The position numbers and the translations under genes were made by a program. From IMG/VR virus record IMGVR_UViG_3300032240_002575, positions 1 to 64,000 of that record: 64,000 bases of DNA. The stretch is one strand, 5' to 3'. The stretch's first letter is position 1. Every line of letters starts with the position of its first letter. Below, piece after piece: positions 1 to 54,545 of the stretch. A model generated the notes under the pieces. The model was given only the letters and a program-made list of their open reading frames with translations, ran no database searches and had not been told where the DNA came from. Origin of the DNA: a virus.

Positions 1-2064
1 ACCAGATGAACCTGAAGTTCCTGAAGAGCCATCCGAACCGCTTGTTCCTGAGCTACCTGAAGTTCCGCTTGAACCAGATGAACCTGAAGTTCCGCTTGAA
101 CCAGATGAACCTGAAGTTCCCGATGAACCATCCGAACCGCTTGTTCCACTTGAACCAGATGAACCAGAAGTTCCGCTTGAACCAGATGAACCACTAGTTC
201 CAGAACTACCATCCGAACCGCTTGTTCCGCTTGAACCAGAAGTACCGCTAGTACCTGACGCCCCATCAACACCAGAAGTGCCAGAAGTACCATCTGAGCC
301 ACTTGTACCAGAAGAACCTGATGTTCCACTACTTCCACTCGTACCTGATGAACCACTTGAACCTGAGGTTCCACTACTTCCACTTGTACCTGATGAACCT
401 GAAGAGCCAGAAGTTCCTGAACTACCGTCCGAACCGCTTGTTCCTGATGAACCGTCTGAACCACTAGTTCCTGAACTACCATCCGAACCGCTTGTTCCTG
501 ATGAACCTGAAGAGCCAGATGTTCCTGAACTACCTGACGTACCACTACTACCATCACTACCACTTGTACCTGATGAACCACTTGAACCAGACGTTCCTGA
601 AGAACCGCTTGTCCCTGATGAACCTGAACTTCCCGATGTACCCGAACTACCACTTGTTCCGCTTGAACCTGAAGTGCCGTCACTTCCGCTAGTTCCTGAT
701 GAACCACTTGAACCTGATGTTCCCGAACTACCACTAGTTCCAGAAGAACCATTAACACCACTTATTCCACTTGTTCCTGAAGTACCTGACGAACCATCAG
801 AACCCGAAGTACCGTCTGTACCACTAGTTCCACTACTACCATCCGAACCACTTGTACCACTGCTACCATCTGACCCACTAGTTCCTGATGAACCTGAAGT
901 ACCATCCGTACCGCTAGTCCCGCTTGAGCCATCTGAACCTGAAGTTCCTGATGAACCGTCAGAACCACTTGTACCAGATGAACCTGAAGTTCCTGATGAA
1001 CCTGAAGTTCCTGATGAACCGTCCGAACCACTTGTTCCGGAGGTACCACTACTACCGCTTGTTCCTGATGAACCAGACGTTCCCGATGTTCCACTACTAC
1101 CGCTTGTTCCTGACGAGCCTGAAGTACCACTACTTCCACTAGTTCCATCTGAACCGCTTGTACCAGATGTACCATCACTTCCTGAAGTTCCACTAGTTCC
1201 ATCTGAACCGCTTGTTCCTGAAGTACCGTCACTACCTGAAGTACCGTCACTACCTGATGTTCCACTTGTTCCTGATGAACCTGAAGTTCCACTGCTACCG
1301 CTAGTTCCATCTGAACCACTTGTACCTGATGAACCAGAAGTACCACTACTACCGCTTGTTCCTGAAGAACCAGATGTTCCACTTGAACCACTTGTTCCTG
1401 AAGTTCCCGATGAACCAGAAGTACCACTGCTACCGCTAGTTCCATCTGAGCCACTTGTTCCTGAAGTTCCATCACTTCCAGATGTTCCACTAGTCCCATC
1501 AGACCCTGAAGTACCGTCTGAACCACTTGTTCCCGATGTTCCGCTCGAACCAGATGTTCCACTACTACCACTTGTTCCTGAACTTCCACTAGTTCCTGAT
1601 GAACCAGATGTTCCATCACTTCCCGATGTGCCACTTGTACCTGAACTACCCGATGTTCCTGATGAACCAGAAGTTCCACTACTTCCACTTGTACCTGAAG
1701 AACCTGAAGAACCTGAAGTACCATCACTTCCAGAAGTTCCACTTGTTCCAGATGCACCATCGACACCAGAAGTACCACTTGTACCATCAGTACCTGAAGT
1801 TCCAGATGTACCATCTGTACCACTTGTGCCTGAAGTGCCGTCAGAACCAGATGTTCCACTAGTTCCTGAACTACCATCAGACCCTGAAGTTCCACTGCTA
1901 CCGCTTGTTCCCGAAGAACCAGATGTTCCACTAGTACCTGATGTACCATCCGTACCACTTGAACCTGATGTTCCTGAAGAACCGCTAGTTCCGTCTGTAC
2001 CACTTGAACCTGATGTTCCTGAAGAACCGCTAGTTCCTGATGTTCCACTTGAACCTCGTGCTCC
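1..2064 (-). repeat. Gly-X-Y repeat block C (>680 aa, GTS/GSS/GSD-dominated); a short block B lies at ~2325-2535
   Basis: Same 9-nt periodicity; antisense ORF 278..2101 has Pro at every third residue. Confidence 0.95.
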
Positions 2065-5000
2065 TACAAGACAAAGTGTAACTCCTGCCTGTGTTTTATA
2101 ACCAGGATTTTGAGAATATGTAATAACCGCGACTAAAGCTCCTGTTGAAGCGGTATAACCGCTAATTAAAATATCTTCTATAATATTATCAGGTGCATAT
2201 ACACTTAATGTTTGTCCTGGCGCCCATGACATATTTGGATACGAAGGTCCATTGTAGGGCTGTCCTACCGATTGAAAATAATAATCACCAGCTAAGAATG
2301 GTGTACAAATTAAAGGTGATGTTCCTGATGTTCCATCACTACCTGAAGTACCACTTGTTCCATCCGAACCACTTGTACCTGAACTTCCATCTGTACCACT
2401 TGTACCAGAAGTTCCGTCCGAACCCGATGTTCCACTAGTTCCTGAACTTCCATCTGTACCACTTGTACCAGAAGTTCCGTCCGAACCACTTGTTCCACTT
2501 GAACCATCTGTACCTGAAGTACCACTTGTCCCCGAACAAATACACTGATTTATTATTGTTGTATTTGTAGGGTCACTTGCTATTACTGAACCTTGAATTG
2601 CACAAAATACTGTAGCTACGTTAGTTATAGTTGTTGATGTCACATTGTAACAACAATCAATATATTCTACTATATTATAAGATTCTGGGATATTATAAGT
2701 AACACTGTATTGTACACATGTTGCACCGTCGGTACCTGATGTTCCACTAGTTCCATCAGAACCGCTTGTCCCGCTACTACCATCTGAACCACTTGTTCCA
2801 CTTGAACCATCTGTACCGCTTGTACCAGAAGTTCCATCCGAACCACTTGTTCCACTTGAACCACTAGTTCCTGAAGAACCATCTGAACCTGAAGTACCAC
2901 TTGTTCCTGAAGTTCCACTTGAACCGTCTGTTCCACTTGTTCCACTTGTTCCAGATGCTCCATCAATACCAGATGTACCCGAAGTACCATCTGTTCCTGA
3001 TGTACCGCTTGTTCCATCAGTACCTGAAGTTCCTGATGAACCGTCTGTACCGCTTGTTCCACTACTACCATCAGACCCACTTGTTCCGTCTGTACCTGAA
3101 GTACCACTTGTACCAGATGAACCATCCGTACCTGAAGTTCCACTTGTACCCGATGAACCATTAACACCACTTATACCACTTGTCCCACTTGTACCTGACG
3201 TACCATCTATACCTGAAGTACCACTTGAACCATCAGTTCCTGAAGTACCGCTTGTACCATCAGTTCCGCTAGTACCACTTGTACCATCGGTACCTGAAGT
3301 ACCGCTAGTTCCATCCGTACCACTTGTACCTGACGTACCATCTGTTCCGCTTGTACCATCCGTACCACTTGTTCCTGATGAACCGTCAGTACCGCTAGTA
3401 CCTGATGAACCATCTGTGCCGCTAGTTCCGTCAGTACCTGATGTACCACTAGTTCCTGATGCACCATCTACACCTGAAGTTCCGCTTGTACCATCAGTAC
3501 CTGAAGTTCCTGAAGAACCGTCTGTTCCGCTTGTACCATCAGTACCTGAAGTTCCTGAAGAACCGTCTGTTCCGCTAGTTCCTGAAGAACCGTCTGTTCC
3601 GCTAGTTCCTGAAGAACCGTCTGTTCCGCTAGTCCCTGAAGAACCATCTGTTCCGCTTGTTCCATCAGTTCCTGAAGTACCACTTGAACCGTCTGTTCCG
3701 CTAGTTCCTGAACTTCCATCAGTACCTGAAGTTCCGCTGGAACCGTCCGTACCACTTGTCCCAGAACTTCCGTCGGTTCCACTTGTACCACTTGTTCCTG
3801 AAGCTCCATCTATACCTGAAGTTCCGTCTGTACCTGAAGTACCACTTGAACCATCAGTTCCACTTGTTCCGCTTGTTCCGTCTGTACCTGAAGTACCACT
3901 TGTACCATCTGTCCCTGAAGTACCACTTGTACCATCTGTACCTGAAGTTCCTGAAGAACCATCTGTTCCGCTTGTACCGCTACTACCATCAGTTCCACTT
4001 GTACCTGAAGTTCCTGAAGAACCATCTGTTCCGCTTGTACCGCTACTACCATCAGTTCCACTTGTACCTGAAGTCCCTGAAGCACCATCTGTTCCGCTTG
4101 TACCGCTACTACCATCAGTTCCACTTGTACCTGAAGTCCCTGAAGCACCATCTAAACCTGAAGTTCCTGAAGAACCATCAGTTCCACTAGTACCACTAGT
4201 TCCGTCCGTCCCTGAAGTACCGCTTGAACCATCAGTTCCACTTGTTCCGTCAGTACCTGAAGTTCCTGAAGAACCATCAGTTCCACTTGTTCCACTTGTA
4301 CCATCCGTACCTGAAGTTCCTGAAGAACCATGCGTACCGCTTGTACCATCTGTTCCGCTAGTACCTGAAGAACCGTCTGTACCGCTTGTCCCATCAGTAC
4401 CACTTGTACCACTTGAACCGTCTATACCACTTACACCAGATGTACCTGAAGTTCCATTACTTCCATCAGTACCTGATGTTCCACTTGTTCCACTACTACC
4501 GTCAGTACCTGAAGTACCACTACTTCCATCCGTACCACTTGTTCCTGAACTTCCGTCTGTTCCACTTGTTCCTGAACTTCCGTCCGTCCCACTTGTTCCT
4601 GAACTTCCGTCTGTTCCGCTAGTTCCTGAAGAACCATCACTACCCGAAGTTCCACTAGTCCCTGAAGCTCCGTCAATTCCTGAAGTACCAGAACTACCGT
4701 CTGTTCCACTTGTGCCTGAAGTACCATCCGTACCGCTAGTACCACTTGAACCATCTGTTCCGCTTGTACCACTTGAACCATCAGTTCCACTAGTACCACT
4801 TGAACCATCAGTTCCACTAGTACCACTTGAACCATCTGTTCCACTTGTACCTGAAGTACCATCCGAACCACTAGTTCCTGATGTTCCACTTGAGCCGTCT
4901 GTTCCGCTAGTACCTGAACTACCGTCAGTACCGCTAGTTCCATCTGTTCCTGATGTACCACTTGAACCATCTGTACCTGAAGTACCGCTTGTTCCTGAAG

Positions 5001-7260
5001 CACCATCTATTCCTGAAGTACCGCTTGACCCGTCAGTACCACTTGTTCCACTACTTCCATCAGTTCCTGAAGTACCATTTGAACCATCAGTTCCCGAAGT
5101 ACCGCTTGTACCATCTGTTCCTGAACTTCCACTTGTACCATCACTACCAGAAGTACCACTTGTTCCTGATGCTCCATCTATACCTGAAGTTCCTGAAGTT
5201 CCGTCTGTACCTGAAGTACCACTTGAACCATCAGTTCCACTTGTTCCGTCAGTACCTGAAGTTCCTGAAGAACCATCAGTTCCACTTGTTCCACTTGTAC
5301 CATCAGTTCCACTTGTTCCATCCGTACCTGAAGTTCCTGAAGAACCATCCGTACCGCTAGTACCACTTGAACCATCAGTACCTGAAGTTCCTGAAGAACC
5401 ATCCGTACCCGAAGTTCCGCTTGAACCATTAGTTCCGCTTGTCCCATCAGTACCCGAAGTACCGCTTGAGCCGTCTATACCACTTACACCAGATGTACCT
5501 GATGTTCCGCTTGTTCCACTACTACCGTCAGTACCTGAAGTACCACTAGTTCCATCGGTTCCACTTGTTCCTGAACTTCCGTCTGTTCCACTTGTTCCTG
5601 AACTTCCGTCTGTTCCACTTGTTCCTGAAGAACCATCACTTCCGGAAGTTCCACTTGTTCCCGAAGCTCCATCGATTCCTGAAGTACCCGAACTACCATC
5701 TGTACCACTTGAACCATCTGTACCTGATGTACCGCTAGTTCCGTCCGTACCTGAAGTACCACTTGAACCATCAGTTCCGCTAGTTCCACTTGTACCATCG
5801 GTACCATCAACACCACTTATACCACTTGTACCCGAAGTTCCATCACTTCCTGAAGTACCACTTGTTCCGTCTGTTCCACTTGTTCCTGAACTTCCATCTG
5901 TTCCACTTGTTCCTGAACTTCCATCTGTTCCACTTGTTCCTGAACTTCCATCTGTTCCACTAGTACCACTTGAACCATCAGTCCCGCTTGTACCACTTGA
6001 ACCGTCAGTTCCACTAGTACCACTTGAACCATCTGTTCCACTAGTTCCATCAGTACCTGATGTTCCACTAGTACCACTACTACCATCTATACCACTAACG
6101 CCTGATGTACCTGAAGTACCATCAGTTCCACTTGTTCCACTTGAACCGTCTGTACCCGAAGTTCCGCTAGAACCGTCTGTTCCACTAGTTCCCGAAGTTC
6201 CGTCTACACCTGAAGTACCATCAGTTCCACTTGTTCCACTTGAACCGTCTGTACCATTAGTTCCTGAAGTACCATCAGTACCGCTAGTTCCTGAAGAACC
6301 GTCTGTACCGCTAGTTCCTGAAGAACCATCAATTCCACTTACCCCCGAAGTACCTGAAGTACCATCAGTTCCTGAAGTACCTGATGAACCAGATGTTCCC
6401 GTTCCACCAGTAAAATTAACTATTACATTCCCACCTCCATTATTGATAACAGAAGCCCCTGAAAATGTCATACCTGTAACGTTTGTTGCCGTTACACCTG
6501 ACGTGGCATCATAAACGGTTAGAGGACTTCCACCTCCACTTGTAAATCCTGTAATATTAACTGAAGAACCATCACTATTTTTTAATGTCAACGTACCTGT
6601 TCCACTATTATATGTTCCTCCAGTTACCGTACCTGTGAATCCAGTGATTGTAACTGTACCACCTGTATTATTATATAAATCTAATGTTGTTATTGCAGAA
6701 TAATATGTTCCACCTGTGATTTGAACGTCACTACCCCAAAATATTTGCCAACGGGAATCTAAACCACCTGTATATCCCTCAATAGTTGAGCCAGTCCAAG
6801 CATTTATAAACGCAGCACCTTCAGGTGTATCATCATAAACTTCATACCCTGTACCCAAATCATTAATTGAACCAACAAGTTCGGCAGCATTCCACAATGC
6901 TGTAAATGCGGTCATTGTATATTGATATACAGTATCTGTTTCTTGAACATAAACTTGCATACCTAATCTTCTACGACCAGAAGAAATTCCATCATTATTT
7001 AATTGTAAAATATTTGGAATGGAATATGGTACGTTGTATTGAAAACTAATTGGAATAGAGTTTCCTGAATATAAAACAGGTCCTCCATTAATTAGTACAT
7101 CGTTTGGTATTGTCCAATCCAAATCCGATAAGTAAAATACTTCCATGTACCCACCAATACTATTAACGGAGAATATAGTACCTGTGTCTGATTCTCTAAG
7201 TACTGAATTAGGTGCACTTACTAATATTGATGATGTCGGATTTTTATAGTGAAAGCTCAT
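1..7260 (-). CDS. Giant collagen-like (Gly-X-Y, Ser/Thr/Asp-rich, proline-free) fibre protein, >2420 aa, 3' end beyond window
   Basis: Not in the ORF track. ATG at 7260 gives MSFHYKNPTSS...GGYMEVFY...GRRRLGMQVYVQETDTVYQ..., then two TGGTY..TLTL.N..G..V.ITGF repeats, then (GTS/GTD/GSS)n. Hand translation of 6361-7260, 2521-2740 and 2041-2340 found no stop. The frame at position 1 is still the Gly frame. Confidence 0.92.
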   Translation of the reverse strand, partial: MSFHYKNPTSSILVSAPNSVLRESDTGTIFSVNSIGGYMEVFYLSDLDWTIPNDVLINGGPVLYSGNSIPISFQYNVPYSIPNILQLNNDGISSGRRRLGMQVYVQETDTVYQYTMTAFTALWNAAELVGSINDLGTGYEVYDDTPEGAAFINAWTGSTIEGYTGGLDSRWQIFWGSDVQITGGTYYSAITTLDLYNNTGGTVTITGFTGTVTGGTYNSGTGTLTLKNSDGSSVNITGFTSGGGSPLTVYDATSGVTATNVTGMTFSGASVINNGGGNVIVNFTGGTGTSGSSGTSGTDGTSGTSGVSGIDGSSGTSGTDGSSGTSGTDGTSGTNGTDGSSGTSGTDGTSGVDGTSGTSGTDGSSGTSGTDGSSGTSGTDGTSGTSGVSGIDGSSGTSGTSGTDGTSGTDGSSGTSGTDGSSGTSGTDGSSGTSGTDGSSGTSGTDGSSGTSGTDGSSGTSGTDGTSGTSGSDGTSGTSGISGVDGTDGTSGTSGTDGSSGTSGTDGTSGTSGTDGSSGTDGSSGTSGIDGASGTSGTSGSDGSSGTSGTDGSSGTSGTDGSSGTSGTDGTSGTSGTDGSSGTSGTSGTSGVSGIDGSSGTSGTDGTSGTNGSSGTSGTDGSSGTSGTDGSSGTSGTDGSSGTSGTDGTSGTDGTSGTSGTDGSSGTSGTDGTSGTDGSSGTSGTDGTSGTSGIDGASGTSGTSGSDGTSGSSGTDGTSGTSGTDGSNGTSGTDGSSGTSGTDGSSGTSGIDGASGTSGTSGTDGSSGTSGTDGTSGTDGSSGTSGTDGSSGTSGTSGSDGTSGTSGTDGSSGTSGTDGSSGTSGTDGSSGTSGTDGSSGTSGTDGTSGTSGTDGSSGTSGIDGASGTSGTSGSDGSSGTSGTDGSSGTSGTDGSSGTSGTDGSSGTSGTDGSSGTSGTDGSSGTSGTSGTDGSNGTSGTSGVSGIDGSSGTSGTDGTSGTDGSSGTSGTDGTSGTHGSSGTSGTDGTSGTSGTDGSSGTSGTDGTSGTDGSSGTSGTDGTSGTSGTDGSSGTSGLDGASGTSGTSGTDGSSGTSGTDGASGTSGTSGTDGSSGTSGTDGSSGTSGTSGTDGSSGTSGTDGSSGTSGTDGTSGTSGTDGTSGTSGTDGTSGTSGTDGSSGTSGTDGTSGIDGASGTSGTSGTDGSSGTSGTDGSSGTSGTDGSSGTSGTDGSSGTSGTDGTSGTDGSSGTSGTDGSSGTSGTDGSSGTSGTDGSSGTSGTDGTSGTDGSSGTSGTDGTSGTSGVDGASGTSGTSGTDGTSGTDGSSGTSGTDGSSGTSGTDGTSGTDGTSGTSGTDGTSGTSGTDGTSGTSGTDGTSGTSGTDGSSGTSGIDGTSGTSGTSGISGVNGSSGTSGTSGTDGSSGTSGTSGTDGTSGSDGSSGTSGTDGSSGTSGTDGTSGTSGTDGTSGTSGIDGASGTSGTSGTDGSSGTSGTSGTSGSDGSSGTSGSSGTSGSDGTSGTSGTDGSSGTSGSDGSSGTSGSDGTSGTSGTDGATCVQYSVTYNIPESYNIVEYIDCCYNVTSTTITNVATVFCAIQGSVIASDPTNTTIINQCICSGTSGTSGTDGSSGTSGSDGTSGTSGTDGSSGTSGTSGSDGTSGTSGTDGSSGTSGSDGTSGTSGSDGTSGTSPLICTPFLAGDYYFQSVGQPYNGPSYPNMSWAPGQTLSVYAPDNIIEDILISGYTASTGALVAVITYSQNPGYKTQAGVTLCLVGARGSSGTSGTSGSSGTSGSSGTDGTSGSSGTSGSSGTDGTSGTSGTSGSSGTSGSSGTSGSDGSSGTSGTSGSDGTSGTSGTDGTSGTSGTDGTSGTSGVDGASGTSGTSGSDGTSGSSGSSGTSGSSGTSGSSGTSGSSGTSGTSGSDGTSGSSGTSGSSGTSGSSGTSGSSGTSGTSGSDGTSGSDGTSGTSGSDGTSGTSGSDGTSGSSGTSGSSGTSGTSGSSGTSGSSGTSGSSGTSGSSGTSGSDGTSGSSGTSGSSGTSGTSGSDGTSGSDGTSGTSGSDGTSGTSGSDGTSGTSGSDGTSGSSGTSGSSGTSGSSGTSGTSGSSGTSGSSGTSGTSGSDGSSGTSGSSGTSGSSGTSGSDGSSGTSGSDGSSGTSGTDGTSGSSGTSGSDGSSGTSGSDGSSGTSGTDGTSGSDGSSGTSGTSGISGVNGSSGTSGSSGTSGSSGSSGTSGSDGTSGSSGTSGSSGTSGSSGSSGTSGSSGTSGSSGSSGTSGSDGSSGTSGSSGTSGSSGSSGTSGSDGSSGTSGSDGSSGTSGSDGSSGTSGSSGSSGTSGSSGTSGSSGSSGTSGSSGTSGSSGTSGSDGTSGTSGVDGASGTSGTSGSSGTSGSDGSSGTSGSSGSSGTSGSSGSSGTSGSDGSSGTSGSSGSSGTSGSSGSSGTSGSSGTSGSDGSSGTSGSSG
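2725..6405 (-). repeat. Gly-X-Y repeat block A (~1,220 aa, GTS/GTD-dominated)
   Basis: Every third minus-strand codon is GGN, seen as Pro at every third residue of the antisense ORF 3416..6514. Contains internal 27-bp and 63-bp tandem units. Confidence 0.95.
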
Positions 7261-7283
7261 GTTGTTTTTATTATTAAATATTT

Positions 7284-8906
7284 TTAGATTAATGTTCCGC
7301 CTTGCCAATATAAGTTATTTCCACTATTTGTTATGTTTACTCCAGCACCAGGTTTAGTTGTATATACTCTATAAGTTCCTGCAGGTATGTTTGTTGAACC
7401 AGAATAGTTAAACAATAATGATGAATAAACTGTATTCATCGTAAAGTTTGTTCCTGGAGGGTTTGCAGTACCTTCTTTAATTGTTTGATATGTTTGTCCA
7501 TTAGTTGCTCCTGTTGAAACTATCCAAGTGTACCAAGCAACTTCTCCAGAAGGTACAGTTGTATTTGGAACTTGAATTGTTTGGAATGTATATGCAACAA
7601 TTGAATTACCATAAGCATCCAAACCACCTGTAGTTGTTGAAATAGGTGCTGTAAATATTGGTGGTTCAGAACTTCCCCAACCATTATAGGCAACATAAGC
7701 ATTCATTTGAGCATCAAACGTCGCTTGAACATTTGATGGTGAGTTGATATTCAACCCTCTAAACGTACTTCCTTGACCCAACATGTACGTATTCAATGCA
7801 TTTCTAATAGTCACATCATTTCTATCTATGAATAGATAAGCAAATAATCCTAAAGGAGTCGATGACGGTGTTGGTGTGTGTGTTGGTGTATTTGTTGGTG
7901 TGTTAGTTGGAGTTTGGGTATTTGTTGGTGTGTTAGTTGGAGTTTGGGTATTTGTTGGTGTGTTAGTTGGAGTTTGAGTTGGTGTGTTTGTAGGTGTTTG
8001 TGTTGTAGTTGATGTTGGTGTGTTAGTTGGAGTTTGGGTATTTGTTGGTGTGTTAGTTGGAGTTTGAGTTGGTGTGTTCGTAGGAGTTTGAGTTGGTGTT
8101 GATGTTACTGTTGATGTTGGAGTAGTTGTATTTGTTGGTGTATTAGTTGGAGTTTGAGTTGGCGTGTTTGTAGGAGTTTGAGTTGGTGTTGATGTTACTG
8201 TTGATGTTGGAGTATTAGTAGGAGTTTGAGTGTTAGTTGGTGTTAGTGTAGGTGTTGGCGTATTTGTAGGAGTCTCCGTTTGACTTGGGGTTACCGTAGT
8301 AGTTGGAGTTTGAGTATTAGTTGGTGTGTTTGTTACACTTGGAGTTGGCGTATTAGTAGGAGTCTCCGTCGGTGTTTGAGTTGGCGTGTTTGTAGGAGTT
8401 TCAGTTGGTGTTGACGTTACTGTTGATGTTGGAGTGTTAGTTGGAGTTTGTGTATTTGTTGGAGTATTAGTCGGAGTTTCTGTAACTGTCGGAGTAACTG
8501 TTGAAGTTGGTGTTATCGTATTAGTTGGGCTTGGAGTTAGACCAGGTGTTTGAGTGTTAGTCGGTGTAATTGTAATTGTTGGAGTTATTGTAGGAGTAGT
8601 TGTTGGTGTCGAAGTAACGGTTGGGGTTGGTGTCGATGTTTGATTTGTTGGCGTAATACTTGGTGTTGGTGTTGGAGTTGGTGAGCCGCATTGAAGCGTA
8701 ACAACAACACCGTTCAACATTTGTGTTCTTGTTTGAGCTGATAAATAAATTACACTATCAACATAAACATTGAAAGGACCCAAAGCGTTTGAGTTTTGTG
8801 CTAACCTAACAATGTATGAAGTACAACCTGTTACTGTAACTTGTTGTTCAATTTGATTATTACATCCCGGTGCATTATTGGTAACTGTTATTGAATAAGT
8901 TGACAT
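7284..8906 (-). CDS. Pro/Thr-rich (TPTN/TPTQ repeat, mucin-like stalk) virion protein with globular N- and C-terminal domains
   Basis: ORF track 7284..8939. Start more likely at ATG 8906 (MSTYSITV), 17 nt downstream of a TATTTAT motif. ~280 aa of TPT repeats. Confidence 0.8.
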
Positions 8907-9006
8907 CCGATGTTTTTTATTTAATAAATACCACGACAATTATATTTCAATAAAAAATAAAACCGAATATTATAAAAAATAAAATGTTGTCTAATTATGA
9001 TGTTAG

Positions 9007-9346: not shown

Positions 9347-11488
9347 TTAATTACATGACAAACACATGATATCATAAACAATAGTCAATTTAACAACTAT
9401 TTCTTGACCATTCAATGTATTATCACCTGGTTTTGTATTAATAATTATTTGATTATTTAACGAATCTATCGTCACTCCACCAATTCCTGGAATTGTTAAA
9501 AGTAAACTTTTAACCGTGTCGTAATACAAATTATCACTTGGAGCCATGACTAACGTTGTACCTGTGAAAAAGTTTTCACTTGTACTCAAACCTAAAGGGT
9601 TAACTGAAACTTCAACACCAAAAACCGCCGAAATTAAATCACAGTTTGTTTTGTCATTAGTCAAATCATTGAATCCTTCATTTAACATTTGAGTCAATCC
9701 ATACTTTGTTTGTGATTGTACCGTAAATTGGTCTCCAGCCATTACATATGTTTGATAAGATACATAAAGTGACTGACAATCTATTGTTGTACTTCTTGTT
9801 AAAGTACATCCATTTGAATCTACAACAGTTAAACTATATGTTCCACCTGTTAATCCTGAAACTTGGATTTCTTGTGGATTGTTTGGAACATTATTTGACC
9901 AAGAATATGTGAATGGTGGTTCTCCCGTTGATATGAGTGCCGTTAAAGTCCCATCAGAACCATTTCCACATGAGGTACTATACAAACTAAAATCTAAAGG
10001 TTGACTTTCTCCAACGTAAACTTGTGTTGTTTGACTACATCCCGTGAAATCGGTTACGGTAATTGTATGTTGACCTGATGCAACATTTGTAAATGTAACC
10101 GCTGACAATGTTGTATTCAAAACATTTTGAACTCCATCCAAAGAATAACTATATGGCGATTGACCTCCTGTTGTCTTTTGAACAAGAACGGTACCGTTAT
10201 TTTGATTACAAGTTGTCCCTGTTGTTTGTGTTGATATTTCAAAAGTATTGCTTGCAATTAACGTTATTTCATCCATATAAGAACATCCCGAAGAATCTTG
10301 CACTGCAACTCCGTATGTTCCTGAATAAAGATTACTAAATAGTTGGGCGGTTTGTGAATTTATTATATTCAAAGTACTACTATCAGGATAGATTAATGTA
10401 TAGGTATAAGGTGAAGTTCCACCAACAACCGAAATTTTAATAGAACCATTTGTACTTGAACATGTACTTCCTTGGCTTGTTATAGTAACAGATGCAAGAC
10501 CCAATGGAGTCAACAAACTTGTAGAAACTAAAATATTACAGAATGCAGAATCAGTTACCAAAACACTATAATCACCTGCGGACAATCCTGAAATCGACCA
10601 AGTCTTTGCATATTGTATTTGAACATTTCCTGTTGATGCAGAATAATAATATGGCGCAGTTCCACCTGTAATTTGAATCGTTAAAACACCATTATTTGAA
10701 AAACAAGTTGGTTGTATTGCTGTGAATGCTCCAAAACCTAAAACATCCACGTCTGAAACAACAGCGGTTTGTGTTAATGAACATCCCAAACTGTCAGTAA
10801 CTTGTACTGAATATGTTCCTGACGTTAAACCTGTAATACTACTCGTTGTAAAACCATTACTCCATAGATAGGTATATGGTGCAACACCTGTCTGTCCTGT
10901 AACAATTATCTTTCCAATTGGTGTGCCACCGCAACTCGAGTTCGGAACAATATATAATCCGTATTCGAACGGTTGACTATCTTCAACTATAAAGTTTGCA
11001 GTTTGACCGGTAGAACCACCCAAATCTTCAACAAGCATGAAATAAGTACCAGCGCTCAAGTTGTTAAAAACTACATTCGATGTATTTGTAATTGCAGAAG
11101 TGATATAAGTGTTATAACCAGAATACAAGTAAAAATTTGTTGTTGAGTAGTTTGAAGTTGATGTACCCGTAACTGAACCATTATCTAAAGCACATGTTGT
11201 GCTTTGAACCGCAACTATACTTCCACAGACTCCAGACGATACAGGTATGTTAATGTAAAATTCTTGGTTTGTGGGCAACGTACTGTCGTTAACCCTTACA
11301 CCATAAGTGTCCGCACTTAAACCAGTTCTGATTGATGGATTAAAAGTAACAACGTCTGAACCCAAGTTTGGACTAACCCATTCTACTGTATATGGTGGAG
11401 TACCACCATTTAAGGTTATTGAAATCGACCCTACATTTGTGTTAGTTGAGTCCCCTGTTACCAATATATTATACTGAAATGCTGACAT
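9347..11488 (-). CDS. SprB-repeat adhesin-like virion protein
   Basis: About 7 repeats of G.I.....GG..PYTY.WS.......L..GTY.V.V.D..GC, typical of Bacteroidota SprB repeats. Start at 11488 (MSAFQY) or 11500. Confidence 0.8.
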   Translation of the reverse strand: MSAFQYNILVTGDSTNTNVGSISITLNGGTPPYTVEWVSPNLGSDVVTFNPSIRTGLSADTYGVRVNDSTLPTNQEFYINIPVSSGVCGSIVAVQSTTCALDNGSVTGTSTSNYSTTNFYLYSGYNTYITSAITNTSNVVFNNLSAGTYFMLVEDLGGSTGQTANFIVEDSQPFEYGLYIVPNSSCGGTPIGKIIVTGQTGVAPYTYLWSNGFTTSSITGLTSGTYSVQVTDSLGCSLTQTAVVSDVDVLGFGAFTAIQPTCFSNNGVLTIQITGGTAPYYYSASTGNVQIQYAKTWSISGLSAGDYSVLVTDSAFCNILVSTSLLTPLGLASVTITSQGSTCSSTNGSIKISVVGGTSPYTYTLIYPDSSTLNIINSQTAQLFSNLYSGTYGVAVQDSSGCSYMDEITLIASNTFEISTQTTGTTCNQNNGTVLVQKTTGGQSPYSYSLDGVQNVLNTTLSAVTFTNVASGQHTITVTDFTGCSQTTQVYVGESQPLDFSLYSTSCGNGSDGTLTALISTGEPPFTYSWSNNVPNNPQEIQVSGLTGGTYSLTVVDSNGCTLTRSTTIDCQSLYVSYQTYVMAGDQFTVQSQTKYGLTQMLNEGFNDLTNDKTNCDLISAVFGVEVSVNPLGLSTSENFFTGTTLVMAPSDNLYYDTVKSLLLTIPGIGGVTIDSLNNQIIINTKPGDNTLNGQEIVVKLTIVYDIMCLSCN

Positions 11489-11490
11489 TA

Positions 11491-14472
11491 TTATGAACAA
11501 TTAATATTAATGTTTATTCCCACATTTAACGATATTGTATCAATTACATTTGAAGTCAAACACGCTAAATTTGTTACGGTTAATGTATTACCATTTAGGT
11601 AATATGTGTAGCCATAATTATACAATTGGGGTAAATAATTAATCAATGCATTTCTCCATTGTGTATTTGTTGGAACGTCTGACATTCCATAACCTGTATA
11701 AAAATATTCTTTAATTATTTGTTGTCCGTCAATCGTTAAATCAACATACCAATCAGTAAGGACAGAATTTTGTTGACATTGATTTAATGTTAAACCACTT
11801 TGAGCCAACATATTATTTACTCTGTTAACCAAAATACTACTGAAATTTGATACAGTTAAATCACCATTAAACCATGGATATATACTAAAATCAACGTATT
11901 CTGTGTTACATGTGTAATTAAAAATGTTTGATATTATAAAACAAGGTTCAACAGGTACAGGTATAAATTGACATCCTCTTTGTCGTCTGTAAACAAATTT
12001 TTGTTTGTTTAAGATTGAATTCTCTAATCTAACTCCTCCATTCCAAATCGTTGTTGCAGGTACCATTTGTTCAACAAGTTTTGTCCAATATGGGCCAATA
12101 CCATTCACATAATCAATTAACTTTTGATATGTGTATTTGTTGTTTGGTAATCCAACAGTTTGTTCTGATTCAATATATTTCCAAAATATCGATTGTAATG
12201 TTGGATAACCACCTGTCTTACCATCAGTTATATATTGTCTGTTTCTTGTATTAATCATGTTTTCCCAAAACGTTTGAGAAAATTCGAAGAACGTTTTTTT
12301 CTTTGGTTCAGGATTAATATATGTCCAATCAACTCCACCAGGAACTGGATAACCAACCGTCAATCCTGATTCAGGTATTGGATAATCATATTGTCTTGAT
12401 TGTACCCATACATCGTATAAAAGTCCTTGTGCAGGATTCATAAAAATGTCGACATTCTTAACATTCAAAACTAATTTTTCATTGTCTACAAAATAGTAAG
12501 CATTGTAATCACCTTGAGTTGATACTCTTATCTTGTCATCATCTGCTAACCATGATTTATTATTATCAACAACTTTTTCTAACTTGAATCCTTCATTTAT
12601 GTATGGGAACTGTCTGTATCGATTCAAATATGTTTGACCATAAGTAAATGGAGTTAGTTGTGTTTGGATATTATAATTTTGACCTGTATAAACATTTCCC
12701 GTAAGTTGAACTTCATCAGGACTTCTATGTTGTGATGTAGTTTCATACCAACCTGCACCAATTTGGAAAAAGAATGTTTCTGTGTTTGCAGGTGCTTTAG
12801 GGTATCCTTCGGCATCGATTGGGTAATCCGACAATCTTACATTAACACTTTGGTAAGTTGCTGATGATGTAAACGCAGTATATAAATGACCTTTAATTTT
12901 ATAAGTGTCACCAGGTAAATAAGCTGGTACAGTATCAACATAAGTTCCACCTGATATTTGCGCAAACTGTGTGTAGAATTGGTCGAGATTAATTTTTTGG
13001 TCGGCAAGGTAAATGTGTTCATTATATTCAATTAATGAATCAGGCGCACCAATCAATCTTAATAAAAACTCTATTGACCTTCTCGTCCCTTTTGATTTGA
13101 AAAGGTAAGAAGCATTCAAAATTAAATTTCTATAGTATGCATAGTTTAACTCTGTTGGTGTTAGAGCTCTTGCATAACCAGGATATGTTGGTGTTGACGT
13201 ATTACCAAATACTGAACTTAAAAAGTTTTCATTTGTGATTGGTGAAAAGTTTGATGACCAACCCAACGTTCTTGCCAAGTTAACCAATAATTCTGATGGT
13301 ATATCGTTTGATGGATTATAGTTAACAGAATTCATGTAAGCCAAACCATCAATGAATTGTTTTATTTGGTCAAAACTCCTACCATATATCTGAAATATTT
13401 TTTCAACTTTTTGTCCCAAAGTGTCGAATTCTTTCAAAGAATCCGTAATTAAAAATCTTGAAATCAAATTGGTTTTGAATGAATCCAAATTAACCGCAAT
13501 TTCTTGAATTTGTGTCAAATACTCATCAAAAAGAAATGAGCTGATGTCCAAATTCCATGGCCCTTGTTTTGGCCAAGTCACTTGTCTGTATTCCGTATAA
13601 ATTTGTCCGTATTCATTTTGTTGTGGGACTTGGAATGCCGCAGTATATTCAGGTCTAACCAATCTGTTAACCAAGAATTTTTCAACTTCATCAAATGATT
13701 CTTGGAAAACTTTATCAACAATATAATCATTTGGTCTGATTTGATAATCGTCAGTTATTGTTGTTGCACTTGTTCCAAAAGGAGCGCCCGAAACATAAAA
13801 TTGTAGGTAACCCAAAGATAGAGTTTCTGATGGAACAAACGATAGTACTTGATAAATGTTATCATTTATACTAACACAATAATCCAAGTAAGTGTTATAT
13901 AAGTTTCTGTATTGTGAAACTGTTATTTCCCTAACGGATAAGTTAGTTGCTGCACTTACAGAATAATCAATGTCAAATGGATTATTAAATCTGTCAACAT
14001 TAACTTTGAAATATGTTTCGTCTGTTTGTATATCATATGATATGTCGTACGCGGTAAAACCTGTATTGAACGAGTCGTTATTAAACATAACGTCTACAGA
14101 CGCAGGGAAATAATTAATAATTCTTGTAATTGAAACACTAAATCTTTTTGACAAGGAACCATACATCGAAAAGTTAAGAACTTGGGAAACATCGTAATTT
14201 GGATAAACTCGGAACTGTGTTGCAAGAATTGCCCTACTTTGTTCCAAACTATCAATGTTCATCATATCCAATGACATTGGTTCGGAGAATGCTCCTACGT
14301 TGAATGTTCTATTTACCTTTTCCGTAACTCCAGTTGTAAACTCGAAGTTACCTTGCGTAAGTCCTCCACCCTCAACAGTTTGTAATCCTACAATATTGTC
14401 GGAGAAGGTTCCCGCACCGTTTCCTGGTCTTGGTGGGTAAAAGTATTTAGTATTTTTTGTTGTTACCGCCAT
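11491..14472 (-). CDS. Baseplate wedge protein, P2 gpI / T4 gp7-like, with extensions
   Basis: Motif IPSELLVNLARTLGW...YRNLILNASYLFKSKGTRRSIEFLLRLIG resembles the P2 gpI-type core; lies in the baseplate cluster. Confidence 0.7.
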   Translation of the reverse strand: MAVTTKNTKYFYPPRPGNGAGTFSDNIVGLQTVEGGGLTQGNFEFTTGVTEKVNRTFNVGAFSEPMSLDMMNIDSLEQSRAILATQFRVYPNYDVSQVLNFSMYGSLSKRFSVSITRIINYFPASVDVMFNNDSFNTGFTAYDISYDIQTDETYFKVNVDRFNNPFDIDYSVSAATNLSVREITVSQYRNLYNTYLDYCVSINDNIYQVLSFVPSETLSLGYLQFYVSGAPFGTSATTITDDYQIRPNDYIVDKVFQESFDEVEKFLVNRLVRPEYTAAFQVPQQNEYGQIYTEYRQVTWPKQGPWNLDISSFLFDEYLTQIQEIAVNLDSFKTNLISRFLITDSLKEFDTLGQKVEKIFQIYGRSFDQIKQFIDGLAYMNSVNYNPSNDIPSELLVNLARTLGWSSNFSPITNENFLSSVFGNTSTPTYPGYARALTPTELNYAYYRNLILNASYLFKSKGTRRSIEFLLRLIGAPDSLIEYNEHIYLADQKINLDQFYTQFAQISGGTYVDTVPAYLPGDTYKIKGHLYTAFTSSATYQSVNVRLSDYPIDAEGYPKAPANTETFFFQIGAGWYETTSQHRSPDEVQLTGNVYTGQNYNIQTQLTPFTYGQTYLNRYRQFPYINEGFKLEKVVDNNKSWLADDDKIRVSTQGDYNAYYFVDNEKLVLNVKNVDIFMNPAQGLLYDVWVQSRQYDYPIPESGLTVGYPVPGGVDWTYINPEPKKKTFFEFSQTFWENMINTRNRQYITDGKTGGYPTLQSIFWKYIESEQTVGLPNNKYTYQKLIDYVNGIGPYWTKLVEQMVPATTIWNGGVRLENSILNKQKFVYRRQRGCQFIPVPVEPCFIISNIFNYTCNTEYVDFSIYPWFNGDLTVSNFSSILVNRVNNMLAQSGLTLNQCQQNSVLTDWYVDLTIDGQQIIKEYFYTGYGMSDVPTNTQWRNALINYLPQLYNYGYTYYLNGNTLTVTNLACLTSNVIDTISLNVGINININCS

Positions 14473-15380
14473 TAACCTGTGATTGTTGTGAAGTTTTTAC
14501 TAAAATCAATATTATTACCTCTACTCTGTCTAACTTCATACAACAATGCGTTGAATTGGTCTCTAATTTCGTACAAGTTGTATTGTCTGTAGATATTGTT
14601 TTGAGTATCGTAGATAGTGTAAATACCGTCATCAATAGATTTAGTTTGATTACCGTAAAGAGCAATAGCAAGAGATGAGACATCGTACTCAACCATATCA
14701 ATCTCCAATGTTATTGGATTGAAATATGTATTACTGATAATAATACTCTGATTTGGTTGACCAATAAATGGAGTTGCATTTGGTTTGTTAGTCGGTGACG
14801 ATGATGGTGATAAAGTCAAAAATATTAAATTTGAATTTCCATCAACATATCTATATCTAATTGATTTTTGTGTTGTGTTAATTTCGTTTGTCACAACAGG
14901 CTCACAGAAAAATGATGAAGTTACAACCCTAAAAAAGTTAGGAATTTTTGAACCATCAGCATTCAAGTATTCAACTCTAAATCCAACCAATCCTTGAGGA
15001 ACGAATTTGTTTTGATATTGAACGGGAACATTTGTTACATCAATAACAATCCCTTTTACGTTTGGTAATGCACTTAACACACCACAATCTGTAATCAATG
15101 TTCTTATTTGAGCTGGTCTCAAATAAAGTGTGTAAATTCCAATCGCATTAAATTGTTCTGCAGGTAAAGTTAAGTTATATAACCCTCCCAAAATTTCAAC
15201 ATTTGCATTACCCCCTGTTTGTGTATTATTAAAGTAAGGTTTCAACAATGTTTGAGCATCAAGTTCAGTTAGGACATAGTTATCTGTAACATCTCTTGAT
15301 GGTGTGTAATTCATTATTATTTGCACGTCTTCAGGTGAAACATCACTTGGTCGAATTGTGCCGTATGAACCGATTGCCAT
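14472..15380 (-). CDS. Conserved phage structural protein (baseplate cluster), function unknown
   Basis: 302-aa ORF; TAATG overlap with the downstream gene; TATTTAT upstream. Confidence 0.65.
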   Translation of the reverse strand: MAIGSYGTIRPSDVSPEDVQIIMNYTPSRDVTDNYVLTELDAQTLLKPYFNNTQTGGNANVEILGGLYNLTLPAEQFNAIGIYTLYLRPAQIRTLITDCGVLSALPNVKGIVIDVTNVPVQYQNKFVPQGLVGFRVEYLNADGSKIPNFFRVVTSSFFCEPVVTNEINTTQKSIRYRYVDGNSNLIFLTLSPSSSPTNKPNATPFIGQPNQSIIISNTYFNPITLEIDMVEYDVSSLAIALYGNQTKSIDDGIYTIYDTQNNIYRQYNLYEIRDQFNALLYEVRQSRGNNIDFSKNFTTITG

Positions 15381-15405
15381 AATTTCTTTTTATCTTATAA
15401 ATAGT

Positions 15406-16515
15406 TTAGTTCTTTTTTTCAACATTAAAAAATCCATAACCGTAGTTAATCATATCTCCAAGATTATCGACTTCTCCTAACCTCTGAATTCTTTCATATG
15501 CGGAGTTCTTTCCTCTTTCAATGAATATGCTCGATTGGATTTGTGCTTGGTCAACAACTTTTAACAATACTTCCTCTTTGGTGATTGGTGTTTGTGTTAA
15601 ATTGTTTTCGGTAAATCCTGATGATGGTTCAAAAAATATTGTTGTACCATCAACATAATCATAATAATTTACGTTGTTTATCGTATACGCTGTGTATATG
15701 GAATTCATATCTGTTATTATTCCCCAAATCTGTCCATTTTTAATTACAGGTGTTCCAACTTGGTATTTTACTGAACCATATAATGCCAAATCTGTTATAC
15801 TTGATTTTGTCAGTCCTGAAACCGTATATGGTACCGTAACGTAGTTAAACGATGTTTGAGCCGACACTTCATTAACCGCATCACCTGAAAATATGTAGTT
15901 ATAACTTACAGGAGTGTTAATCCAATTACCACCCGCAGGAATAAAAAACGCTTCACCATTTGGATTATTTATCACGACGTTTGAATATGGCGTAGTGATT
16001 GTTTTACTTACTCTTGTAACTCCCCAAGGATTTGTTTGTTCCAAAGTAATAACATATTGTGCGTTCGCCGTTGGGTAAGTATGACTTAACGAATTTGGTG
16101 TGTAAACTGAAATAGTTTGTTTTGGTGACCCGTCACCCCAATCTACTTTATATGCCGATAAGTCCAAAAATTTTTGGAACTCACTTGATGTATTGTAGAT
16201 ATTATAAACATACGGATTTGATGTGGTTGATGAAAAAATAAAATTGGCAACAACATCTTTTTGTAGTACCGCTCCATCGAATGGACTATAATATCCTGCA
16301 TCAACCGCAGTTTGAGTAATTAAAATTGGAATTGTTAAACCTGTTAATATTGAACTTCCGTTTGGCCCTGCAGACAAAACTTGTGTCATAGCAGAATAAA
16401 CACCAGTCGTTTCTCCTGTATAACTGGGTCCAACATTTTGACCTTGCATGTTAACCGTAAAAATATCACCCAATATTGTTTCAGGGGATACAACGAATCT
16501 ATAAAAATTTTCCAT
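15406..16515 (-). CDS. Structural protein with PKD-like domain
   Basis: KVDWGDGS...SHTY...YVITL is the PKD signature (W.GDG, HTY). Confidence 0.65.
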   Translation of the reverse strand: MENFYRFVVSPETILGDIFTVNMQGQNVGPSYTGETTGVYSAMTQVLSAGPNGSSILTGLTIPILITQTAVDAGYYSPFDGAVLQKDVVANFIFSSTTSNPYVYNIYNTSSEFQKFLDLSAYKVDWGDGSPKQTISVYTPNSLSHTYPTANAQYVITLEQTNPWGVTRVSKTITTPYSNVVINNPNGEAFFIPAGGNWINTPVSYNYIFSGDAVNEVSAQTSFNYVTVPYTVSGLTKSSITDLALYGSVKYQVGTPVIKNGQIWGIITDMNSIYTAYTINNVNYYDYVDGTTIFFEPSSGFTENNLTQTPITKEEVLLKVVDQAQIQSSIFIERGKNSAYERIQRLGEVDNLGDMINYGYGFFNVEKKN

Positions 16516-17357
16516 TATTTCGGATTAACATATTCATACCATTTTATGGGTACCACCGCACCCGCTCGCTCTCCGTTGTTACTATAAATTGTTTGATGTG
16601 GATTCAAATTGAACACTTGATAGTTTCTTTTATCGTAATCCAATTTAACCCTATAATAGAAATACTGTGTACTATCAAAATTAAATTTATCGCCAACAAT
16701 AGATGATTGAGGCATGTTCATCATTTTTGTGAAATAACCATTTTTTGCATCATAAAACTTTGCTGTCATATAGAATGTATCTATATCCAAAAAGTTTCTT
16801 TTCTTCAACCAATAAATAAAAAACCCTTCTTTATCACCAACATAATCAAGAACGAAATATGGTCTTTTGATATTAACCAATGTTCGTTGCATTTGAGCTT
16901 CCATTGTTAATCCTTGTTGTGTTGGTATTATAAGTGTGATGTAATTTGTTTGTCGTTTTTCATCAGGAGTATCATATAAATCCAATTTGAAAAATGAGTT
17001 TGAAAAGTTGTTTAAGTAGTAATAAATTTCAGTTGGTGTGAAACCTTCTGACATATAGTTATTTCTCCAATTTGTATCTGTATTCAATGAACCACCAGAA
17101 TAAAAATTAAATTCATATTGTATATCAGTAACTTCGTACTTGTTGTCACTAAATGGGTCAGTTATTGTAGTTGGTGCATGTGCAAACCTATCCACTTCAA
17201 AGTCACCATATTGTCCTGTGACCTTTTTAATTACTTCACCTTCATACTCATCAATACTTTGGTCCAAACCCAAATAATCCCAAGTAAGTTCAATTGGGAT
17301 TACCAATTGTTTGTTGGTAAATGTATCCTTCCTTATTTCAATTTTATTCACAGCCAT
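16515..17357 (-). CDS. Hypothetical virion/baseplate-associated protein
   Basis: 280-aa ORF, translationally coupled on both sides. Confidence 0.6.
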   Translation of the reverse strand: MAVNKIEIRKDTFTNKQLVIPIELTWDYLGLDQSIDEYEGEVIKKVTGQYGDFEVDRFAHAPTTITDPFSDNKYEVTDIQYEFNFYSGGSLNTDTNWRNNYMSEGFTPTEIYYYLNNFSNSFFKLDLYDTPDEKRQTNYITLIIPTQQGLTMEAQMQRTLVNIKRPYFVLDYVGDKEGFFIYWLKKRNFLDIDTFYMTAKFYDAKNGYFTKMMNMPQSSIVGDKFNFDSTQYFYYRVKLDYDKRNYQVFNLNPHQTIYSNNGERAGAVVPIKWYEYVNPK

Positions 17358-54300: not shown

Positions 54301-54545
54301 TATGCAGCTTCATATTTTGGTATTTGAGTGTTATAAAATTTTACGGGTTCGGTCCCACCAAAGTAAGCTTGGAACTCATCATAATTCGTTATGAATACTG
54401 GTTCGAATGCTGGACCCTTAATTGTTTCTCCAACAAGACCTAATGTCGTTACACCCACACTTTGGGCTACGAACGATAAGTCGGTTTCAGATGTGTAAAC
54501 GCCTGGTGATACGAATACTTTTTGATTTGCTTGTGCTGTTGCCAT
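51303..54545 (-). CDS. Tail sheath protein (T4 gp18-like), 1080 aa
   Basis: FVSPGVYTSETDLS, KGPAFEP, YYPWI, PWFASAGYTRG, RDTLYQGRINPI, WGNKTLQ...LNRLNVRRLL, YLKPTKALEFIDIEF. Confidence 0.95.
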   Translation of the reverse strand: MATAQANQKVFVSPGVYTSETDLSFVAQSVGVTTLGLVGETIKGPAFEPVFITNYDEFQAYFGGTEPVKFYNTQIPKYEAAYIAKSYLQQSNQLFVTRVLGLSGYDAGPSWSLTVTANVDPTTIGDPSSATPFSATFTGNSTGNTVTFVSGALPIEVSANLNVQYRLLDGSTSTLQTDFNNYLGGILDSPSTSATTAVIYGAIPSTDYFTVTGEYSTIKNPFGCENNFFENDLTAGSNDSWFYANFEFQNYDSLTGNYTGYSFYYAVSSLTSGASNSFTGTVTGNSYTFTGTAYSEFNNMVVGTLRSRGISEYSNSSSSINHGPVYEVGIDYNNSNAWVPNNLQLICTGQYSGITNSPYATFLLSGVTKDNNVFSLETSLLASSAKYITKVLGVDNFGKSRFQTPIFVEEAYQGSLDYAYNQGYIRGLACDLIALPDARSQNTSSIAYNLERYQSPETPYLVSELRGNKVYNLFKFISISDGDSANTEIKVSIANLSFNSMSFDVLVRNFYDTDANPVVIEKFTNCTMDPASNNFVAKKIGSSNGEFALISKYIMIEMAPNYPIDSLPCGFYGYTQREYESFDVYPSPYPKFKTKYYYPGEVIYNPPFGANAGGAPVESAGDIIRRSYLGFSSQFGIDESFLTYKGKQTPPGWISNPLVEGQPWNVLSKGFHMDSGATVVTIANTAMSSGQTAFECGVAEFREDPATQENPYYFIYSRKYTVCFAGGFDGWDIYREWRTNEDRFQLGASGYLAGAAASSRYPTATGDGLFKRIVVQNNTQDFANTDYYAYLLGILTFANPESTNINVFATTAIDYVNNSNLVEEAIDMVQYSRADSVYIATTPDYNMYTPDSTNPQDIIYSQEAVDNLDNTGIDSNYTATYYPWILVRDTVNNTQIYLPPTGEVCRNLALTDNISFPWFASAGYTRGLVNSIKARQKLTQTDRDTLYQGRINPIATFSDVGTVIWGNKTLQVADTALNRLNVRRLLLQARKLISAVAVRLLFEQNDQIVRQQFLDSVNPILDSIRRDRGLYDFRVTVSSTPEDLDANRLVGKIYLKPTKALEFIDIEFFITPTGASFENI

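Follow-up and report, generated by a model that had tools for sequence, protein, structure and literature searches.

A proline-free collagen-like gene of at least 2,420 codons in an uncultured jumbo-type myovirus, probably encoding a long tail fiber, and O-glycosyltransferase-like genes beside its relatives

The collagen-like gene at the end of the contig

We analyzed the first 64,000 nucleotides (64 kb; the window) of the IMG/VR virus record IMGVR_UViG_3300032240_002575, a contig of 77,605 bp that was rated 25% complete by CheckV. The minus strand at its left end (1..7260) carries a collagen-like, putative tail-fiber gene of at least 2,420 amino acids (aa) that is complete at the 5' end and cut by the end of the contig at the 3' end. 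The frame is free of stop codons over 1..7308 (2,436 codons counted from a TTG at 7308 and 2,420 from the ATG at 7260) and exits the window at base 1, which is also the end of the contig. A preliminary description of this DNA had reported a hidden minus-strand open reading frame (ORF) of more than 2,400 aa running from ATG 7260 off the left edge, and translation bore this out; a stop or frameshift in the Gly frame was looked for and none was found. The true length and the C-terminus of the protein lie beyond the contig, and 2,420 aa is a lower bound. Exact 50-mer and 32-mer scans of metagenome contigs for an extension past base 1 gave no match, and the stop codon was not found.

Two observations argue that ATG 7260 is the true start: the upstream gene extends to 7284, and MSF.YKNP at the N-terminus can be aligned with 39 relatives, in which the first Met is nearly invariant. 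The gene was missing from the list of closed ORFs because it is open-ended at the contig edge. In its place, the list gives antisense or out-of-frame artifacts such as 3416..6514 on the plus strand, which at 1,032 aa is the longest of the spurious ORFs over the repeat (others are at 278-2101 on the plus strand and 762-2048 on the minus strand). These are the type of frame that gene callers may choose over the true gene.

Gly-X-Y accounts for 1,986 residues of the protein, as 662 perfect triplets divided among three blocks (409, 24, and 229) with no Gly lost, in agreement with the roughly 2,000 residues in three blocks described previously. A non-repeat N-terminal domain of 287 aa (6400..7260, minus strand, as are all parts of the gene) is followed by block 1 (2719..6399), which has 409 uninterrupted triplets and would be approximately 351 nm long if triple-helical. 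A Cys-rich island of 62 aa with seven Cys (2533..2718) separates block 1 from block 2 (2317..2532; 24 triplets), and an 84-aa beta-barrel "bead" with the motif FLAGDYYFQ (2065..2316), a mobile module, separates block 2 from block 3. Block 3 (1..2064, with triplets at 4-2064) has 229 triplets, is richer in GSS, and exits the contig. Assuming a triple helix with a rise of 0.286 nm per residue, the tracts in the window would have a combined length of 568 nm or more.

The composition of the repeat is extreme. The X position is Thr (63%) or Ser (31%) with a few Ile, Ala, and Val, and the Y position is Ser (72.5%) or Asp (26%) with a few Asn and only 0.2% Thr; the commonest triplets are GTS (304), GSS (158), GTD (113), and GSD (43). 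The preliminary description had called the repeats free of Pro, Lys, and Arg. There is indeed no Pro and no Lys, but there is a single Arg, in a GAR at the start of block 3. The usual stabilizers of collagen, Pro/hydroxyproline or Lys-Asp/Glu pairs, which are typical of collagens and not defining, are thus absent from the window repeats. Pfam Collagen (PF01391) nevertheless matched the window protein with an E-value of 1.9e-265 (857.5 bits against a cut-off of 27.2), and the PHROG matches of the repeat were "tail fiber" and "collagen like minor tail". A sequence search of the PDB with the repeat matched only collagens through the Gly periodicity (the top match was 8zxl, "spindle/axial fibril") and was uninformative about homology.

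The repeat DNA is degenerate. It has periods of 27, 54, and so on nucleotides, with mostly 60-90% self-match and a few near-perfect local repeats, for example at 3937-4153. The third base of the Gly codons is free (T 362, A 259, G 24, C 17; heterozygosity of 0.546), and Ser at Y uses the TCN and AGY codon families about equally. Because Gly was never lost while the third bases of its codons were scrambled and Ser used both codon families, we conclude from the sequence that the repeat is an old, long-diverged coding sequence under selection, and is neither a chance frame nor a simple stutter of the assembly.

Relatives and genomic context

A search with the N-terminal domain retrieved at least 93 related IMG/VR contigs in which it is conserved (46-82% identity), and the alignment of the domain has 44 invariant columns. 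The same domain heads 52 long database proteins without any Gly-X-Y, four of which have a recorded Peptidase_S74. It is presumably a conserved anchor or adaptor to the baseplate. No signal peptide was evident at the conserved N-terminus in a reading by eye. An AlphaFold2 monomer model of the domain (from a 40-sequence alignment) had a predicted local distance difference test score (pLDDT) of 59 and no Foldseek match in the PDB at E <= 0.001, and a search of the ESM Atlas returned viral hypothetical clusters only; the domain was accordingly left without a fold.

Nearly all of the relatives' contigs stop within the repeat, like that of the window. Complete relatives encode proteins of 1,788-2,797 aa (loci L080/81, L082, L071, L078, L064, L089/92, L032/37, and L084), and complete genes from independent metagenomes match with zero or one mismatch across 5.4-8.2 kb. 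The lengths of these fibers are therefore real and reproducible. The preliminary description had named assembly inflation, if shown by long reads, as a refuting observation; the identical relatives' genes support the length of the window gene.

The same unusual composition is found throughout the family. In 94 distinct relative ORFs with 19,126 triplets, the X position is taken by Thr or Ser and the Y position by Ser, Asp, or Asn, and the longest uninterrupted run is 569 triplets. Fibers with an N-terminal anchor of the window type are essentially without Pro, Lys, and Arg; these residues do occur in a few ORFs of the set, which encode more distant proteins with the 84-aa bead as their only shared part. 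In several relatives Asp and Glu make up less than 1% of runs of 350-560 triplets, down to 0.2%.

The relatives differ in shaft and in distal modules. On the same N-terminal domain the shaft may be collagen-like, a Thr-Pro linker, or a beta-repeat; L074, L076, and L077 (815-aa homologs) have long Thr-Pro (TPTPT) linkers in place of Gly-X-Y. Neighboring proteins at L080:15369-17186 and L084:15858-16970 were grouped with these Thr-Pro-linker cases, and the one in L080 bears a Laminin_G_3/ConA-like lectin domain. The C-terminal ends also vary: one type has a domain of about 145 aa, L032 has a phrog_17490-type end, G001, P0002, and P0006 have Peptidase_S74 (PF13884) tips, and an insert in L021 matches the PHROG tail-fiber families 16641 and 5668. 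Cys-rich islands like that of the window recur in L067 and L071, and a comparable motif is found in a protein neighboring the L080 fiber; such an island could possibly knot three chains by disulfides. The bead is present in 26 further loci in which the heads and C-termini are unrelated. In L082, the closest bead-bearing contig, its protein sequence is 100% identical to that of the window and its DNA only about 85%, indicating strong purifying selection. An AlphaFold2 model of the bead (pLDDT of 91) is an all-beta, small closed barrel, and its structural matches in the PDB were generic small beta-barrels only (best Z of 6.8; phage JBD30 baseplate, Z of 5.9), from which no function was inferred. 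Pfam and PHROG searches with the two internal islands of the window, the Cys-rich island and the bead, gave no match. Judged by their sequences, the relatives are mosaic, beads-on-a-string tail fibers in which the anchor is kept, the shaft is exchangeable, and the distal modules are swapped.

One relative, G001 (295 kb, 98% complete), has Gly-X-Y at its two contig ends only, as determined by a scan of the whole genome, and we infer that both ends are parts of one gene. The right-end ORF is one continuous frame that leads from a Ser/Thr tract through a classical Pro/Gln/Ala collagen tract (25% Pro) and a neck to a Peptidase_S74 intramolecular chaperone. Chaperones of this type assemble trimeric fibers.

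The fiber gene is the last gene of a baseplate module. Directly upstream is a gene for a 551-aa protein (7284..8939, minus strand; phrog_15511), a homolog of which directly precedes the fiber gene in 73 relatives. Beyond it is a conserved baseplate-distal module (9347..17357, minus strand) that encodes a 717-aa protein with matches to Pfam SprB and to a Hoc-like PHROG, followed by proteins of 993, 302, 369, and 280 aa, and the order of this module is the same in nearly all of the 80 relatives' loci that were fetched. A Baseplate J/wedge subunit (23934..25772, minus strand; PF04865, phrog_219) marks the module as baseplate. The contig also encodes a tail sheath (51303-54545), a ribonucleotide reductase, a DnaB-like helicase, a UvsX-like recombinase, and a single-stranded DNA-binding protein, a gene content that identifies it as that of a myovirus. 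The 717-aa protein (9347-11500, minus strand) has six SprB repeats in addition to its Hoc-like match and lies inside the baseplate module. SprB repeats hint at a Bacteroidota-type host, but a cyanophage has the same pair of a Ser/Thr fiber gene and a TibC-like gene (see below).

In four loci (L064:17230-20832, L078:16263-18884, L084:17141-19639, and L082:12929-17881), the fiber gene is directly followed by another Ser/Thr collagen-like gene. This second gene has a different N-terminal domain of about 105 aa, which starts MANEF..ARKG, and exits the contig; the copy in L082 has periodic Gly-to-Ala interruptions (ATS/ATA).

In the search for cultured relatives, tblastn of 50,697 phage records with the bead and the N-terminal domain as queries gave no match. 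For blastn of the repeat against phage records, the sole match was the 735-kb uncultured LR756501/3, and no other INPHARED record has Ser/Thr Gly-X-Y DNA of this kind (LR756501.1/LR756503.1, at about 404-405 kb and 580 kb; 66% identity over 1.2 kb, in many places). Other products of this phage are a TibC-like protein (48% identity) and a relative of the 145-aa C-terminal domain.

Glycosyltransferase genes beside the fiber genes of relatives

In L032/L037, L071, and L089/L092, the gene immediately after the fiber gene, and convergent with it, encodes a family 4 glycosyltransferase (GT4; PF00534) fused to a TibC/Aah-type domain. These proteins match the NCBIfam equivalog TIGR04414 ("autotransporter strand-loop-strand O-heptosyltransferase") with 278, 202, and 287 bits, respectively, against a cut-off of 200, and that of L089 is additionally fused to an FkbM methyltransferase. 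TibC/Aah enzymes are cytoplasmic and O-glycosylate repeat proteins. The phage of L071 is closely related to that of the window, and the baseplate proteins of the two are 91-95% identical. G001 has two TibC-like genes approximately 8-11 kb from the 3' end of the fiber gene. In the other complete loci the next gene is the second Ser/Thr collagen-like gene, which exits the contig, and the would-be position of the enzyme lies beyond the contig.

The association also holds in reverse. We fetched 80 IMG/VR loci through the TibC-like domain alone and scored each for a Ser/Thr run of at least 15 triplets, free of Pro, Lys, and Arg, within 10 kb. Such a run was found near the enzyme in 47/80 loci (28/48 enzyme clusters at 90% identity and 20/29 at 75% identity), and in none of 80 control upstream stretches totaling 792 kb.

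A cultured Microcystis phage, Mel-JY01, has a Ser/Thr Gly-X-Y gene paired with a TibC-like gene in the same manner. In its record (L207, PP395634.1), the Ser/Thr-type Gly-X-Y repeats belong to a plus-strand ORF at 2..3052, which is open at the start of the record, and a 1,226-aa FkbM/TibC-like fusion is encoded at 4750-8430. The GenBank annotation gives antisense "hypothetical proteins" at 1-651 and 739-2298 (minus strand, with a VPEVP-type translation) and, of the true frame, only a C-terminal piece (2519-3052).

Beside the 3' end of the G001 fiber gene lies a modification island (L110; G001:278000-294914) that includes the two TibC-like genes, two PF13640 2-oxoglutarate/Fe(II) oxygenases (one fused to a GT2), a DUF6445 protein, GT2s, a flavin amine-oxidoreductase-like protein, FkbM-like proteins, and a sugar nucleotidyltransferase-like ORF. 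The oxygenases adjoin the Pro-rich collagen tract, and prolyl hydroxylation is conceivable there.

Interpretation as a probable long tail fiber

We believe that the gene encodes a trimeric, collagen-like long tail (baseplate) fiber of an uncultured jumbo-type myovirus, probably O-glycosylated, and we give this reading as a whole a rough probability of 0.62. The preliminary description had proposed an extremely long virion appendage. That part is now well supported by comparative sequence evidence, because the gene is the last one of a baseplate module with conserved synteny, many other fiber-type proteins start with the same N-terminal domain, and relatives have tail-fiber and Peptidase_S74 ends. 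A trimeric, collagen-like triple helix in the repeat is likely, given the unbroken Gly-X-Y tracts, and the Ser/Thr tract of G001 that passes into a Pro-rich collagen tract and Peptidase_S74 supports it indirectly.

The family differs from known collagen-like systems in the register and the range of its residues. Collagen-like tail fibers of phages were already known ("bacteriophage collagen", Smith et al. 1998, as cited in PMC1079782), and include cyanophage P-SSM2 orf028, in which X and Y are described as often Pro, Ser, or Thr, and EPclA of an Escherichia coli O157 prophage (PMC3368898), the stability of which is ascribed to Pro at X and about 22% charged residues (PMC11923368). Like the window gene, these place Gly-X-Y inside a modular tail fiber with a conserved N-terminal anchor and variable distal domains, and the PHROGs match. 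Unlike theirs, the repeats of the window gene have no Pro or Lys, a single Arg, tracts that are 10-50 times longer (409-569 uninterrupted triplets in the family), and at X and Y almost only Thr, Ser, and Asp. A 2025 survey (PMC11923368) proposed KGE/KGD salt bridges as a convergent, general folding code, with KGD accounting for 13% of viral triplets. The code addresses the same problem, that of keeping very long prokaryotic or viral Gly-X-Y chains in register, whereas the window family has none of these clamps in approximately 19,000 triplets.

In bacterial collagens, X is typically Pro and Y is typically Thr (PMC8968730). Those of the exosporium of Bacillus (BclA) and Clostridioides (BclA1) form filaments with an O-glycosylated hydroxyl residue, no hydroxyproline, and a globular C-terminal domain (PMC8968730). 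The window protein would share with them a collagen-like filament rich in hydroxyl amino acids, which are O-glycosylated in BclA. However, BclA has Gly-Pro-Thr, and repeats of that type were not found here (Thr is 63% of X and 0.2% of Y, with no Pro); in addition, BclA forms a nap on the spore surface and is not a virion protein. The sugar of BclA comes from a rhamnose pathway, and the candidate enzyme here is a heptosyltransferase of the TibC type. In Riftia cuticle collagen and the model peptide Ac-(Gly-Pro-Thr(Gal))10, as cited in PMC11923368, a glycosylated hydroxyl residue takes the stabilizing role of hydroxyproline. There, unlike in the window, Pro is kept, the glycosylated Thr is at Y, and the protein is of animal origin. 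The position of Thr was missed in the preliminary description: vent-worm collagen and BclA have Thr at Y, and the window repeat has it at X. As read from these sequences, the register is thus inverted in the window family: Thr occupies X and Ser occupies Y, and the repeats do without Pro and basic residues. TibC/Aah enzymes (BAHT) that act on the autotransporters AIDA-I, TibA, and Ag43 belong to the same family as the enzymes beside the relatives' fiber genes (TIGR04414 above cut-off). The substrates known for them are bacterial adhesins with beta-helical repeats of 19 residues, whereas here the enzymes are encoded by phages, fused to GT4 and sometimes to FkbM, and paired with Gly-X-Y genes. 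We found no paper on Mel-JY01, and none in which enzymes of the TibC type are tied to phages or to collagen-like proteins.

In the fiber that we envisage, three parallel chains would be anchored to the baseplate through the 287-aa N-terminal domain, and the Gly-X-Y tracts would wind as a collagen-type triple helix with Gly in the core and Thr/Ser (X) and Ser/Asp (Y) facing outward. The Cys-rich knot and the 84-aa barrel would be small globular inserts that serve as registration or hinge beads, and the missing C-terminal part would bear a trimerizing and receptor-binding tip, as in complete relatives. Without Pro and Lys/Arg, neither of the two known stabilizing devices could be used. The most likely substitute would be dense O-glycosylation of the exposed Ser and Thr, above all Ser at Y, by a phage-encoded protein O-heptosyltransferase of the GT4-TibC/Aah type, with further help from hydroxyl-water networks and from trimer nodes at the end and inside the fiber. 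The fiber may then act as a thin, flexible line of at least 568 nm that enlarges the capture radius for host cells in water, with host specificity set by the swappable distal modules. For ice or mineral binding and for shielding, which the preliminary description had also raised, the analysis yielded evidence neither for nor against. Stabilization by O-glycosylation or by cations had been suggested in the preliminary description. O-glycosylation gained indirect support from the TibC-type enzyme beside relatives' fiber genes, found in both directions of search; cations fared less well, since Asp and Glu fall below 1% in several relatives. Stabilization by cations alone (through Asp) was ruled out as a general mechanism on the same grounds (down to 0.2% Asp/Glu). 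The broader proposal is a widespread class of phage "glyco-collagen", in which Pro-free, salt-bridge-free Gly-(Thr/Ser)-(Ser/Asp) forms a true triple helix over up to approximately 1,700 uninterrupted residues, held mainly by O-heptosylation of Ser and Thr by phage GT4-TibC fusions. We offer this only tentatively.

Several points weigh against the proposed fiber. Gly-X-Y tracts without imino acids and salt bridges are expected to be weak triple helices, and KGE/KGD clamps are treated as general (PMC11923368). A cultured relative with virion proteomics was sought and none was found. O-glycosylation of the window fiber is extrapolated from relatives and is best regarded as a well-motivated hypothesis. 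The preliminary description had advised looking for glycosyltransferases elsewhere in the genome; they lie beside the fiber cluster in relatives, but the 77.6-kb contig of the window (25% of the genome, with the 3' flank of the fiber gene beyond it) has no TibC-like or other glycosyltransferase gene. About 40% of the TibC-like loci have no Ser/Thr Gly-X-Y gene within 10 kb, and the known substrates of TibC/Aah are autotransporters and not collagen.

We considered whether the repeat might be something other than a triple helix. It might be a mucin-like or entropic tether, that is, a single extended, possibly heavily glycosylated Gly/Ser/Thr chain forming a "bottle-brush" or a flexible linker between beads, with the Gly period a by-product of the expansion of 9- or 27-nucleotide units. 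The repeats do have a 27-nucleotide unit structure, (G-S/T-S/T)n resembles designed flexible linkers, Pro and charge pairs are absent, and some homologs, such as L074, have TP-rich linkers in place of the tract; linkage to an O-glycosyltransferase would suit a mucin-type brush equally well. A tether has no need for Gly at every third residue, however, yet none of the 662 was lost, runs reach 569 triplets, and synonymous sites are scrambled. The X and Y residue sets are also distinct and conserved, and in G001 the tract runs on into a Pro-rich collagen tract and the trimer-specific Peptidase_S74. We regard a tether as unlikely. Another Gly-based fold, either a polyproline-II or polyglycine-II bundle (as in snow-flea antifreeze protein or the phage S16 gp38 tip) or a beta-solenoid, would give a fiber far shorter and thicker than 570 nm. 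Such sandwiches occur in phage receptor-binding tips, and the repeat has a 9-residue period (autocorrelation of 0.70 at lag 9), but this unit is too short for a strand and a turn. The 409 strict triplets of block 1 show no periodic turn or loop signal, there is no Gly at X or Y and no Gly-Gly pair, Pfam Collagen fits throughout, and the PDB sequence matches were to collagens only. With uninterrupted runs of 409-569 triplets in the family, the snow-flea-type bundle raised in the preliminary description is not supported at the level of sequence, and we consider folds of this kind highly improbable.

Two further alternatives concern where the protein is located and how long it is. It could belong to another virion appendage (a head fiber, a whisker, or a sheath "hair") or be a secreted or matrix protein that is not part of the virion. 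The Hoc-like, head-decoration match of the neighboring 717-aa protein would fit this. We think it improbable, in that the fiber gene always follows baseplate genes, relatives have tail-fiber PHROG domains and Peptidase_S74, and no signal peptide was apparent by eye. Inflation of the length, or a chimera, from short-read assembly of repeats is suggested by the breaks of nearly all relatives' contigs in the repeat and by the few near-perfect local repeats. Most of the repeat DNA is only 60-90% self-similar, however, complete genes for 1,788-2,797 aa are identical across different samples, and the frame is intact over 7.26 kb, all of which makes this explanation very improbable.

The stability of collagen is now explained by imino acids, hydroxyproline, and Lys-Asp/Glu clamps, and the window family has kept Gly perfectly without any of these. 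Either another stabilizing principle is at work or Gly-X-Y has a use other than collagen, and the TibC-type O-glycosyltransferase as a neighbor is a concrete candidate mechanism. What is new here is the fiber-adjacent GT4-TibC/Aah-type enzyme in relatives together with the reverse association. If the proposal is correct, collagen would have a third chemical means of stabilization, independent of the other two, and action on collagen-like or viral substrates would be a first for the TibC family; a hydroxyl-only collagen scaffold would also be of interest for materials. The findings also identify a blind spot of annotation, in that such genes break assemblies, drop out as open-ended ORFs, or, as happened in the GenBank record of Mel-JY01, are assigned to the wrong strand. 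For phage biology, they point to tail fibers half a micrometer in length, possibly glycosylated, in abundant uncultured jumbo phages.

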